From: Nitrospirota bacterium
GTDB taxonomy: Bacteria; JACPQY01
Assembly: GCA_016180645.1 (NCBI GenBank)
Contig: JACPAV010000016.1
Coordinates: 1 to 64,000, forward strand
Direction: 5' to 3'
Length of the DNA: 64,000 nt
Shown: positions 32,516-44,707 of the stretch, piece by piece
Layout of the letters: each line of letters starts with the position of its first letter
Position numbering within the stretch: the stretch's first letter is position 1
Position numbers and translations under genes: made by a program
The notes under the pieces: generated by a model
Seen by the model: the letters and a program-made list of their open reading frames with translations, nothing else
What the model was told of the DNA's origin: nothing
Databases searched by the model: none

Positions 32516-34495
32516 TTGGACCAGCAGCGAATTCTCGACCAGATTCTCAACCGACTCTCGCTTCCCGACCTCGTCCAGAAATACACGCCCCTCAAGCTCT
32601 CCGGTAGACAGCATTCGGGGCTCTGCCCCTTCCACTCGGAGAAGACACCCTCGTTCAGCGTCAGCGCCGAAAAAGGGCTTTACCACTGCTTCGGCTGCGG
32701 TGCCGGCGGTAATTTGTTCACCTTTTACATGCAGATGGAGCGGGTCACATTCCCCGAGGCCGTCAAAGAGCTCGCGAGGCGGGCGGGCGTGGAGATTCCA
32801 TCCTCTCCCCAGGACGCCCGACGCGAAAGTCGGCGGGACGCGATGCGTCGGGCTCTGGGCGAGGCCCTGGCGTTCTTTCGGGAGAAGCTGTCCGACTCGC
32901 GGGAGGGATCGGCCACCCTCTCCTACCTGCGCGACCGCGGCCTGACGGAGGAAACCATCAACCGCTTCGAGGTCGGCTGGGCGCCGGCGGAGTGGGAATC
33001 GCTGGCCCAACATCTGCGGCGGAAGAAAATCGATCTCACACTGGCCGAAGCCTGCGGCCTCGTGCGAAAAAAAGCCTCCGGCCATTACGATTATTTCCGG
33101 GCTCGGATCATCTTCCCCATCCGGGATGCGCAAGGGCGACTCTCCGGCTTCGGCGGCCGGGTCCTTCCCGAAGCTCACGCCTCTCGCCCCTCGACCCCCA
33201 CGACGGGGGAAGTGCCGCGGGAGGGCACCCTGAAGGAATCGATGGAATCGGGCAGGGTACTTCGCAGCCTCCCGGAGCGGCCGCCTCCCACCTCCCGGGC
33301 GGAGCCCAAGTATCTCAACTCGCCGGACAGCGAGGTGTTCCGCAAGGGCGAAATCCTCTTTGGCCTCCAGGCGGGGCGGGATTCGATCCTCAAGCAGGGT
33401 GAAGTCACCCTCGTAGAAGGGTACATGGACGCCATCAGCCTCCATCAAGCCGGTCTATCGAACACGGTGGCTCCACTCGGCACGGCGCTCACAACGATCC
33501 ACATCCGGCTCCTCAAGCGTTTCTCACCCGCCTTTCGCATCCTCTTCGACCCCGACGAGGCCGGCGTCAAGGCGGCCCTCCGCTCACTCCCCCTGCTGTT
33601 GGCGGAAGGCATCCTCGCACGAGCCGTGCGACTGCCCGCGGGTCTGGACCCGGACGCCTTCGTTCGGGAGCGTGGCGCGGATGCCCTCCGAGCCCTATTC
33701 GCCTCGGATCAGGATCTCTTCGAAATGGCCATCGACGTGGTCCTCAAGGCCACTCCCCCAACCACGCCCCAGGGCAAGAAAGCGGCCGCGGACCGCCTCC
33801 TCGCCCTTCTTCGACCGGTAACAGATTCCATCATTCTCGACACTTATGTGCGGATGATCTCCCCCCGACTTGGGATTCGCGAGGATGCGCTTTGGCGTTC
33901 TCTCCCCCCGGCGGTTCAAGCGGGCACGGATCCTCGGCCCTCCCCCGTTCCACCCCGATCCATGCCGGGCGCCGGCCGTCTCGCCTCCCTTCGCGAAAAG
34001 CAGCGCGACCTCATGGAAAAGACCGCCCTCCAAGCCGCACTCGACGATCCCCGCCTCTGGTCCGTTCTCTTTCACGCCGGCCTTTTTTTCAAGGATCCGT
34101 GGCGCGCCAAGCTGATCGACACCGCCCATCGCCGGTTCGAAGGTCGGTCCCCGAGCCCCGAGGCGTTCGCAACGCTCTTCACCGAGAAGGACGATTGCGA
34201 GAATTTCAGCCGGCTCGCCTTGGAGCGACCTTCAGCGGTCACGGCATCGCCGGACGAGCGCCTGCACAACGCCCTCAACGGACTCTTTGACCTTGCCAAA
34301 AAGGAGAAATTGGTTTATGTAAGGAACCTTATTCAGAAAGCCGGCAAGCACAACGACGATGCAGAAATGAAGCGGCTATTGCTCGCGAAGAAGCGCGTCG
34401 AAAATTCGCAGCTCGAATGGCCGCTGGATCGAACGCCGGATCTTTTCGCGGAAAAGGAACCCGAGCCGTTGGACGGCCTTTCCGGGCGAGCATGA
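32516..34495 (+). CDS. dnaG: DNA primase, carrying a 30-codon repeat insertion
   Basis: [31 protein letters not shown]...PKYLNSP, VEGYMD, FDPDEAG, DPD. Confidence 0.97.
33192..33281 (+). repeat. 90-nt structured repeat, copy 1 (in frame within dnaG)
   Basis: 84/90 identical to the reverse complement of 44220-44309. Confidence 0.92.
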
Positions 34496-37812: not shown

Positions 37813-38433
37813 CGGGCAACCTGTAAGCCGGATTCTGTCGGCAGGAGCCGACACCCTGAGCAAGCCATGGATGGCGTGTCGAAGGGTCTGCATCCTGCCC
37901 GGTGATCATTCCTCTAATGCGTCCTACCCGCCCCGCCTCTCCCCGCCAGCCGGCGGGAAAACTTGAGCGGGCCGCTCTTCCCCCCCACCCCTTCTGAAAT
38001 CTGAGATTAAGAATCTCAAATTCCCCAAGGGGTGGGGGGAGCGGGGCATGCTTGGACTTGCTCCGGGCGGAGTTTACCGCGTTTCACGTCACCCCGCCCT
38101 TTCCTAGAACAGCCTGCACGCTTGTGCGGCCGCCACTTCCTGTGTCCCAAACGTCTTCCTGACCTCAATCCTTAGCCCGCACGCTGATTCCAAGAAAGGG
38201 CGGGGCTACTCGTCTCTGTGGCACTATTCGTCGAGCCGATCCCGCTCCTAAGCGGGGAGCCCGCCTCCGTTTGACACGGAGCACCCTGCCCTGCGGAGTC
38301 CGGACTTTCCTCCCCCCCCGAATCGTGAACCCGTGACCCGGTGAGCCCGAGGTTCCGACCACCGACTGCGGCCGGCTTTCGGGGTCACGGCTCACGGGGC
38401 CACGATCGGGGAGAGCGATCACCCAGTTACCCG
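37813..38433 (-). ncRNA. rnpB: RNase P RNA, unusually long (~620 nt)
   Basis: P1 CGGGTAAC/GTTGCCCG, P2 GGTGATC/GATCACC, GAGGAAAGTCCGG, AGTGCCACAGAGA, GGTAAACTCC..GGAGCAAG, ACAGAATCCGGCTTA; extended -10 TGCTACACT just upstream. Confidence 0.93.
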
Positions 38434-43783: not shown

Positions 43784-44707
43784 TCAGTTCCTTTCGCCCA
43801 GGAAAGCGGACAATTGCCGGTTGAAATCATCCGGGTATTCCAGCATGGGACAGTGCCCGCAGGAAGGGAAAACGGTCAGGCGGGCATGGGGAAGCTCTTT
43901 CTGAAAAACGTGTGCGTTCTCAATCGGGAGCAGCGCGTCGTGATCCCCCCATGCGATCCAGGTTCGAGCTTCGATCTGACGAAGGCGCGCCCGAACGGGC
44001 GTCAAGAGCGCATTTTGGGCCGAGGACATGAAAGCATGGGCCCGGTTTCCGAAATCCGAACCGAAGAACTCCTGGAGGGCGTGCCGGACCATCTTCTCCA
44101 GGACCGGCGGCTCGGTGTAGAAGATGAGCCTCCGAATATAGTCGCGTACAACCTGCTCCCGCTTCTTGGAATCCTTCTCCACGCCCGAGGCCACGGCGAA
44201 GACCTGCGCGAGAAAGTCCGCCGCTCCGGGAGGCTGCGAAGTACCCTGCCCGATTCCATAGATTCCTTCAGGGTGCCCTCTCGCGGCACTTCCTCCCTCC
44301 TGGAGGTCGCCAAACAGAAGCTTCTCCGGGAAGATGTTGACCCCGGCCGCATCGACCAGCGTGAGACTGGAGATCCTCAGAGGATGGGCCAGGGCAAAAG
44401 CTTCGGAAATCATCCCTCCCATCGAATTGCCCACAAGGTGGACCCGCTCGATGCCCAACTTCTCCAGCAGCCCTTTCACCGTCGCGACAAAGAAATCCAT
44501 GGAATATTCCCGGCGGGGCTTTTCAGAATGGCCGAAGCCCGGCAAATCGAGCGCCACCACGCGGCGGCCGCGCGCGAAATAGGGGACATTCAGTTCCCAG
44601 TTCTCCTTGTAGCCGCCGAGACCGTGGACAAAGAGGACGGGTTCCCCCTGGCCCTCATCCAGGTAGCAGATATCGGCTCCATCGAGTCGAATGTGTTTTT
44701 CTTCCAC
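43784..44707 (-). CDS. Alpha/beta-fold hydrolase, carrying a 30-codon repeat insertion
   Basis: FVHGLGG, DLPGFGHS, GNSMGG nucleophile elbow, WGDHD, CGHCPMLE. Confidence 0.92.
   Translation of the reverse strand: MEEKHIRLDGADICYLDEGQGEPVLFVHGLGGYKENWELNVPYFARGRRVVALDLPGFGHSEKPRREYSMDFFVATVKGLLEKLGIERVHLVGNSMGGMISEAFALAHPLRISSLTLVDAAGVNIFPEKLLFGDLQEGGSAARGHPEGIYGIGQGTSQPPGAADFLAQVFAVASGVEKDSKKREQVVRDYIRRLIFYTEPPVLEKMVRHALQEFFGSDFGNRAHAFMSSAQNALLTPVRARLRQIEARTWIAWGDHDALLPIENAHVFQKELPHARLTVFPSCGHCPMLEYPDDFNRQLSAFLGERN
44220..44309 (-). repeat. 90-nt structured repeat, copy 2 (in frame within the hydrolase gene)
   Basis: 84/90 identical to 33192-33281. Confidence 0.92.

Follow-up and report, generated by a model that had tools for sequence, protein, structure and literature searches.

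The question raised by this locus is why one 90-nucleotide (nt) sequence lies in frame within two unrelated genes, one of which encodes DNA primase. The locus is found in the first 64,000 nt (the whole stretch analyzed here, referred to as the window) of contig JACPAV010000016.1, C11 in our numbering, of a Nitrospirota bacterium metagenome-assembled genome (MAG; GCA_016180645.1, hereafter G000) that comprises 4.72 Mb on 65 contigs with 60.8% G+C and is 97% complete. The first copy (33192-33281, + strand; 57.1 bits by covariance model) contributes 30 residues in phase 2 to the product of dnaG (32516..34495, +), a 659-codon open reading frame (ORF) that matches solved primases (2au3, E 1.9e-70) and is the sole primase gene in the MAG, with one genomic match. 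The second copy (44220-44309, − strand; 58.0 bits) contributes 30 residues in phase 1 to an alpha/beta hydrolase (43784..44707, −; Pfam Abhydrolase_1, E 2.7e-36, and Abhydrolase_6). An original prediction, made from the letters of the window, had described the two as copies of a mobile, structured repeat inserted in the sense orientation of both hosts. The gapless alignment (84/90 identical) and the homology of the two ORFs confirmed this description, and translation returned the insert peptides it had quoted, in phases that differ between dnaG and the hydrolase, with the third sense phase closed by TGA in both copies. The hairpins it had drawn, at 33195-33209 (hairpin 1) and 33214-33281 (an extended hairpin 2) in the fold of copy 1, and the compensatory change from CCCCC/GGGGG to CCTCC/GGAGG were likewise seen in the alignment and fold. 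A pattern for a 50-nt core matched the window at these two places only and gave 0 matches in 100 dinucleotide shuffles.

A census of the MAG showed that the basic unit is a 51-nt repeat with two hairpins, of which the 90-nt sequence is a longer and less common derivative. The repeat resembles repetitive extragenic palindromic (REP) sequences and has no gene of its own. BLAST, nhmmer and a covariance model based on 25 short copies agreed on 33 copies on 21 of the 65 contigs, 5 long and 28 short, which occupy 31 loci because two pairs stand head to tail. The repeat is therefore not confined to the window, and the earlier view of the 90-mer as a dispersed, structure-conserved element holds (33 copies, covariation), whereas its status as the basic unit passes to the 51-nt form. 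The long form (90 nt) is found in dnaG, in the hydrolase and once each on contigs C10, C6 and C8; the short form has 25 clean copies, 51 nt long apart from two of 52 nt, and three aberrant ones, of which one is 60 nt long, one is weak and one is degenerate. The unit consists of a CGA lead, a first hairpin with a 5-bp stem and a 5-nt loop, a 4-nt linker, and a second hairpin of 5+4 bp with an internal loop, at whose tip the long form carries 39 additional nt. In the alignment of the 25 short copies, the unit begins with CGAC (CGACC) and ends with GCGGC.

The fold is supported by the variation among copies. Pairing is kept in 97.4% of 350 alignment cells, against 37-55% when the partners are slid, and both sides have changed at 5 of 14 pairs (22 cells), a covariation score reached by 0 of 500 shuffles. 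Fold z-scores were -3.9 for the short form and -2.3 and -1.6 for the two window copies; the minimum-energy fold consists of two independent hairpins whose termini do not pair with each other. Stem wobbles on the sense strand (6 G-T vs 3 A-C mismatches) were considered as an indicator of the folding strand, but this use was dropped since the counts are too few. Searches against Rfam returned only two tRNAs for the window at gathering score, with no match to the unit, and nothing relevant at E values up to 1 for a metagenome contig carrying several units (L090).

Outside this MAG, the repeat has a narrow close kinship and a wider, diverged one. The GTDB phylum of the MAG holds only two species genomes, G000 and G001; the latter is likewise a groundwater MAG and carries the label Nitrospirae. 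When 185,579 species genomes were scanned with a pattern, the G001 record alone matched. G001 contains exactly one copy, 49/51 identical to G000 copies, although its DnaG is only 47-60% identical to that of G000. In metagenomes, a stricter pattern (hairpin 1 plus the start of hairpin 2) matched 0 contigs, and a looser hairpin-2 pattern matched 20. By covariance model, these contigs carry many diverged 51-nt units of the same layout, which keep the loop and linker bases and differ in their hairpin-1 stems. These relatives are mostly intergenic, and on contig L090 they form three clusters of both orientations between ORFs, resembling classical REP clusters. Applied to the 23 strongest copies from metagenomes, a crude test of frames gave 12 sense and 11 antisense, and the shorter open side was at most 106 codons in 22 of them. 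At the protein level, a peptide search with the DnaG insert region found no match among proteins of 362-1154 aa, and a 49-residue peptide joining short and long forms found one match among 1.84 billion representatives, an 80-aa ORF with the short-form peptide in tandem.

Most copies in G000 lie in genes. Genes were called with a simple codon-usage caller trained on 745 long ORFs and were checked with Pfam. Twenty copies at 19 loci are inside sense-strand genes, one is inside an antisense gene without a Pfam match, eight are beside or overlapping the ends of sense genes, three (at two loci) are intergenic and antisense to their neighbours, and one has no gene nearby. Homology supports the protein on both sides of the copy in DnaG, the hydrolase, SucD (within the CoA-binding domain), MurD (within the C-terminal domain), a DUF1329 protein and the class II ribonucleotide reductase (RNR), where the copy lies between TSCPD and the C-terminal cysteine motif. 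In a thiolase-like protein, Pfam support is downstream only, and the upstream part shows coding potential in the same frame. The host genes, including dnaG, murD, sucD and the class II RNR gene, are single-copy, and the copies lie anywhere from 5' leaders through the interior of domains to C-terminal tails. The genome's own GTAG-tagged REPs provide a comparison: 10 of 135 are inside called genes, against 20 of 33 copies of the element inside sense genes (Fisher p 2e-11, run on 21/33 with the antisense copy added). Since GTAG-REPs fall mostly outside called genes, the gene caller is not simply swallowing repeats. Altogether, an element kept in frame in an essential single-copy gene, with two of its phases in use, is what the window contains, as had been proposed. 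At one further locus (G000:C60:58396; L037 12133-14055), the tubulin domain of FtsZ is preceded, in its own frame, by about 235 codons without a stop. Where this open stretch begins lies a short-form element, which overlaps the end of the upstream gene; the stretch is a long N-terminal extension or else an open leader.

Empty sites showed that the copies are insertions and not ancestral loops. In the DnaG orthologues of all 30 other genomes searched, two aligned blocks flank the region around residues 220-260, and the insert residues correspond to gaps against the solved structures 2au3 (DnaG), 6mgg (SucD) and 3lk7 (MurD, a clean gap of 16-17 residues). All four orthologous sites tested in the sister genome G001 are empty: its orthologues lack 17 (MurD), 30 (SucD), 32 (DnaG) and 29 (hydrolase) residues exactly at the element, and its hydrolase, 68-74% identical, is without residues 133-163. 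The insert peptides of DnaG and the hydrolase are thus not an ancestral feature of these proteins. The single G001 copy is itself in frame (phase 1, sense) within a giant surface protein. It occupies one of the two units of a duplicated coding segment; the other is uninterrupted, an empty site, and comparing the two shows a 51-nt insertion with CGA on both sides. In the same surface-protein ORF (L057, G001:C40, about 1487-1625), a GTAG-type REP-like sequence encodes VGADSDPS twice, and one of these two units is the landing site of G001's only 51-nt element.

Additional evidence came from Logan contigs of four sequencing runs (X1-X4), all from one study, of which X1 and X2 may be the source samples. 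A look-up of the dnaG stretch listed no RNA data set that contains it. An insert-free form of dnaG, at depth 20.1 in X3 and 3.23 in X4, joins position 33165 to 33302 via 10 other letters and, translated by hand, reads FGGRVL-GEG-EPKYLN, the canonical short primase loop. Reads were placed on this form at 90% likeness, with the side lengths of the joint unlisted, and the form may come from a near relative instead of the same population. The filled and insert-free forms differ by a net 126 nt, that is, the 90 nt of the element plus about 36 nt of heptamer-like flank: degenerate CTCACGC, CTCTCGC and CCCTCG units on the left (33166..33191) and a C-rich stretch on the right (33282..33301), both absent from the insert-free form. 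The period-7 score over the junction is 0.60 after the element is taken out. The DnaG loop between GFGGR and PKYLN measures 4-7 residues in 12 distant relatives and about 15 in G001, which has no element there (alignment A5, columns 230-280); as judged from these sequences, it may be a place where this lineage has repeatedly gained insertions.

What inserts is precisely a block of 51 or 90 nt, and it lands directly 5' of sites that resemble CG(A)(C). CGA opens 24 of the 33 copies. Directly after the element, C comes first at 27 of 31 loci and G second at 22, and the empty sites in G001 read CGACCCT (sucD) and CGACCT (hydrolase). As these sites resemble the element's own 5' end, head-to-tail pairs are the outcome of such a rule. 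Once the element is taken out, a period-7 or period-8 array, in most cases with a TCACG core, reappears at 10 of 31 loci; the random rate is 77 of 20000 positions (p 3e-17). The target rule also accounts for phase: the 20 coding sense copies are distributed 1/12/7 over the three phases, which fits the CGA phases in the genome's genes (0.117/0.595/0.288; p 0.60) and does not fit a uniform spread (p 0.011), so the phase bias is a signature of the target rule.

Heptamer arrays of this kind are heavily over-represented throughout G000. Counted at three or more copies and at least 80% match, period-7 tandem arrays of about 30 nt number 205, compared with 29 for period 6 and only 7 for period 9. Within the window they occur, for example, at 1670-1699 as well as in the element flanks at 33166-33191 and 33282-33301. 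The dispersed motif families are TCACGAC-like, ATTTGAG, GGTTCCT, CTCATCA, AGTGGTC and GCTGACC. About half of the arrays are inside called genes, and their strand preference relative to genes differs by family, partly because of stop avoidance. We take these arrays to resemble the short tandemly repeated repetitive (STRR) sequences of cyanobacteria; no description of such arrays outside cyanobacteria was found in the literature searched. One RNA gene of the window is affected as well. The RNase P RNA gene (37901-38363, −) scores 68.3 bits and is missed at the default threshold because this is below the Rfam gathering score of 100; it carries large insertions, among which are a run of three TCACGGG-like octamers in the P3 loop (about 38320-38345) and about 94 nt in the P12 region. 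In contigs of other organisms, at high depth, 38097-38200 is replaced by 36 letters.

The strand of the element follows the genes and not replication, and the availability of targets does not explain it. At 27 of 30 loci the copy runs in the same direction as its host or neighbouring gene (p 8e-6), with 19 of 20 sense amongst coding loci and 8 of 10 amongst non-coding loci (p 0.11). A replication-strand bias was rejected: GC skew on the element strand was positive for 16 and negative for 15 of the 31 copies scored, despite a skew that is coherent along large contigs and with which 57% of genes are co-oriented. Two explanations of the sense bias remain, namely selection against antisense insertions or an insertion step linked to transcription.

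Read-through translation appears to be the best reading of the genic inserts, judged from lengths and frames. The values 51 and 90 and their 39-nt difference are all multiples of three. Every one of the 21 genic copies has a length of 51, 60 or 90 nt, and both 52-nt copies are non-coding, although copies that are not multiples of three (0/21 coding vs 2/12 non-coding) do not differ significantly between the classes (p 0.125). The sense frames in use contain no stops, and the TGA phase present in four of the five long copies is not the phase that those copies use. In an AlphaFold2 model of DnaG residues 2-475 (14-sequence alignment; mean pLDDT, the predicted local distance difference test, 86.3), residues 223-260 are the only internal segment under a pLDDT of 50, a level otherwise seen just in the last five residues; the insert is thus modelled as a disordered loop. 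These observations fit into an explanation that we consider probable as a whole. A mobilising enzyme would act in trans, genic copies would keep the frame and be read as hydrophilic, disordered surface loops of 17 or 30 residues, and insertions that break the protein would be lost, leaving mostly sense copies. Survival in single-copy essential genes (dnaG, murD, sucD, class II RNR) would then be due to inserts that keep the frame and form loops.

The likeliest mobiliser would be a single-strand HUH/Y1 transposase, of the IS200-like or REP-associated tyrosine transposase (RAYT) type, a tentative assignment to which we give clearly less than an even chance. Several features are consistent with HUH single-strand transposition as it occurs in IS200/IS605 elements and RAYTs: hairpins, a sequence specific to one strand, termini that are not inverted, and insertion next to a short motif equal to one end of the element. 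G000 encodes seven Y1 transposase ORFs (PF01797), on C48 (two), C46, C36, C25 (two) and C52. Four of these genes are flanked by other repeats of their own, and the one on C52 has none. A classical REPtron lies at G000:C25:34800-35900, where a 156-aa Y1 gene stands amid GTAG-tagged REPs, a family with at least 135 members genome-wide, 91% of them outside genes. The repeat differs again from gene to gene beside the second Y1 on C25 (157 aa) and beside those of 310-360 aa on C48, C46 and C36.

Several observations weigh against the explanation given above. The element does not flank any of the seven Y1 genes, and 0 of the 33 model matches fall on contigs with a Y1 gene; the linked TnpA/RAYT gene that the original prediction had proposed to look for is thus not next to any copy. 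A regex search of G000 for isolated hairpins revealed none that would mark an autonomous parent. The strand of the element does not follow GC skew, unlike IS200/IS605 elements, whose orientation is tied to the replication strand. The 19:1 sense bias of the coding loci exceeds the asymmetry of the target motif (50-65% sense; p 0.002), and all three antisense frames, as read from the consensus, are also open, so that selection alone is unproven as the cause of the bias. The phase bias was considered as proof of peptide selection and rejected, as the CGA phase distribution fully accounts for it. Flank identity is inconsistent: the first three bases of the element recur after it at 11 of 31 loci and CG at about 20 of 31, and the left copy is far better conserved than the right. 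That the genic copies are translated is something we infer. Finally, no single Logan contig covers a whole copy, as would be expected of a repeat longer than k (k=31), and the 3' junctions were reached with only 27-30 letters.

Further searches for an enzyme or parent element in G000 and related contigs were also negative. With tblastn, the seven Y1 proteins turned up no homologous Y1 sequence either at the G001 locus or on any of the 20 metagenome contigs, and PF04480/DUF559 had no match in G000. Patterns for hairpin 2 and for the long-form insert (39-43 nt) had no match outside known copies, and the hairpin-1 pattern had seven weak ones with 1-2 mismatches. Since the MAG is 97% complete, absence of a full-length insertion sequence (IS) with the same ends is unproven. 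These results add to the case for spread without a dedicated transposase, by template switching or by one-ended, homology-driven repair at CGACC-like sites, with the heptamer arrays acting as fragile, slippage-prone sequence. Such spread would explain why the target resembles the 5' end of the element, as at the two G001 sites, and it is also consistent with the head-to-tail pairs and with the recurrence of rare 5' variants (TGA, CAA) in the right flank at 3 loci. CGTC-type REPs offer a precedent, being without a dedicated transposase according to the part of PMC3733652 available to us. We nevertheless regard this route as unlikely: the left junction has no microhomology, and the unpaired loop and linker bases are conserved even in the diverged metagenome relatives, which suggests recognition by a protein.

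A route of about the same standing, and hence one that we would not expect to be correct, is insertion oriented by transcription, the second of the two remaining causes of the sense bias. A single-strand-specific enzyme would use the strand exposed in transcribed genes, and the family, with its multiple-of-three lengths, its stop-free frames and its hydrophilic peptides, would be adapted to coding sequence, the TCACG-type arrays being landing pads or by-products. If true, the element would be a coding-sequence-specialised mobile element of an undescribed kind.

The same bias could mean that the element is kept because it is useful, either as a sense-strand mRNA motif for stability, processing or protein binding or as a linker peptide. 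The sense orientation at 27 of 30 loci, the conserved structure and loop bases and the excess of G-T wobbles on the sense strand are in line with such a function, although the wobble count is too small to weigh. The hosts are unrelated, however, and the positions are spread from leaders to tails; the four tested G001 orthologues do without the element, an insert-free dnaG form coexists with the filled one, and the relatives elsewhere are of mixed orientation by the crude test. Retention for function is, in our estimation, quite improbable.

Still less probable is that the element is skipped by a ribosomal hop or excised at the RNA level, so that the proteins would stay ancestral. The original prediction had left open whether the inserts are translated as loops or are removed or bypassed at the RNA level; lengths in multiples of three and open frames agree with the former, and the same features disfavour the latter, for which neither is needed. 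What speaks for bypass is a stable hairpin that begins right at the 5' end of the insert, the essential nature of the hosts, and short direct repeats in the flanks of some copies (e.g., a 6-nt repeat in murD) that might serve as take-off and landing codons. Known cases of programmed bypass, phage T4 gene 60 and the yeast mitochondrial byps, have matched take-off and landing codons and an insert that is not bound to multiples of three and is usually closed. Identity with this mechanism was rejected, as matched flanks occur at 11 of 31 loci only, all genic copies are open multiples of three, and the copies of other lengths are confined to non-coding DNA.

An assembly artefact, in which a collapsed repeat was misjoined into genes, can be practically dismissed: it could draw on the missing full-length Logan contig and the short 3' overlaps mentioned above, but each copy is entered from its unique flank on either side by contigs of three to four runs, which cross the 5' junctions with at least 31 letters on each side (dnaG in X1, X2 and X3; the hydrolase in X1 and X3), and the frame of a homology-supported protein is kept on both sides in every genic copy. 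The chimera that the original prediction had named as a possible flaw was therefore not found. Loose contig ends of other copies start exactly at 33192, and also at 33227, the point at which short and long forms diverge, and further loose ends lie at 44309.

Comparison with known systems places the element within a familiar class. The Rickettsia palindromic elements (RPEs; Ogata et al. 2000, 2002), in-frame inserts in many genes as outlined in the available part of PMC10969869, are the closest by description, and the likeness to them drawn in the original prediction was apt, both being in-frame repeats in unrelated genes. As far as that source goes, both are palindromic families without a gene of their own, with a large in-frame share in unrelated genes, compatibility with the protein fold and no known transposase; an in-frame position was found here for DnaG, the hydrolase, SucD, MurD, the DUF1329 protein, the thiolase-like protein, RNR and others. 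The RPEs described there are about 100-150 bp long and restricted to obligate intracellular Rickettsia, whereas the present unit is 51 or 90 nt long, belongs to a free-living groundwater lineage and nests in heptamer arrays, and the likeness is one of description.

A second parallel is given by the GTAG and CGTC REPs inside genes, many of them for replication and repair, which encode 20-30 residues (Di Nocera et al. 2013; PMC3733652, as are the following REP features, from the portion of the paper at hand). CGTC-tagged REPs consist of a CGTC tag, an 8-9-bp stem and a 4-5-nt loop (Table 1 of that paper). Like the present unit, these REPs are short GC-rich stem-loops with G-T stem pairs, and the CGTC class shares with it the lack of a dedicated transposase and the intragenic copies. 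The unit differs in starting with CGAC, which is neither tag, in having two hairpins (5-bp and 5+4-bp) instead of one 8-9-bp stem, in standing mostly single where the REPs form head-to-head dimers, and in being 61% intragenic where the REPs are mainly extragenic. The suggestion of an undescribed system is thus not supported, because palindromic repeats that sit in frame within genes, those for replication and repair among them, are on record in the consulted parts of both papers (PMC3733652, PMC10969869).

Other candidates were compared and set aside. With REP/REPIN sequences and their RAYTs, the unit shares hairpins, the absence of terminal inverted repeats and covarying stems, and its metagenome relatives cluster in both orientations between genes; identity fails on the GTAG tag, on flanking of a Y1 gene as in a REPtron, and on the mainly genic location. 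Miniature elements derived from IS200/IS605 (PATE-like) carry a hairpin near each end, have no inverted termini and no clear target duplication, and insert next to a motif matching one element end. The unit is like them in hairpins, termini and target, and differs in having no replication-linked orientation and no cognate TnpA with these ends found. MITEs, miniature transposable elements with inverted repeats, were rejected as well, as the termini are unpaired and no full-length IS with the same ends was found. The BoxC/PIT repeat, or TMECO, an intrastrand-triplex motif, follows the pattern CCCTCNCCC N3-6 GGGNGAGGG N3 GGGNGAGGG, with three 9-nt blocks, and is always intergenic in E. coli in the available text of Holder et al. 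2015 (PMC4666352). Going by that text, it is similar in its C-block, loop, G-block and further G-rich block and as an orphan repeat whose mobility is unexplained, but identity was rejected because the unit has 5-nt blocks and a 9-nt second spacer, and its third G-run pairs within hairpin 2.

Selfish DNA inside proteins, known from Rickettsia and a few REP-rich bacteria, is thus also found in a free-living, uncultivated groundwater lineage. The case is a clean one: the unit measures 17 codons and its derivative 30, the empty sites are exact, the same aquifer samples yield a dnaG form without the insert, and a classical REP family that keeps to intergenic DNA in this genome serves as an internal control. 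For annotation, inserts of this sort account for unusual loops in essential proteins and for an RNase P RNA that scores below threshold. The target rule (5' of CGA(C), within heptamer arrays) and the orientation that follows genes can be tested against the genome's seven Y1 transposases. Altogether, the element is a new family of a known kind, that of the Rickettsia palindromic elements and intragenic REPs; the class itself is ordinary, and what is noteworthy within it are the 17- and 30-codon units, the target rule with its nesting in heptamer arrays, and the gene-oriented strand bias.

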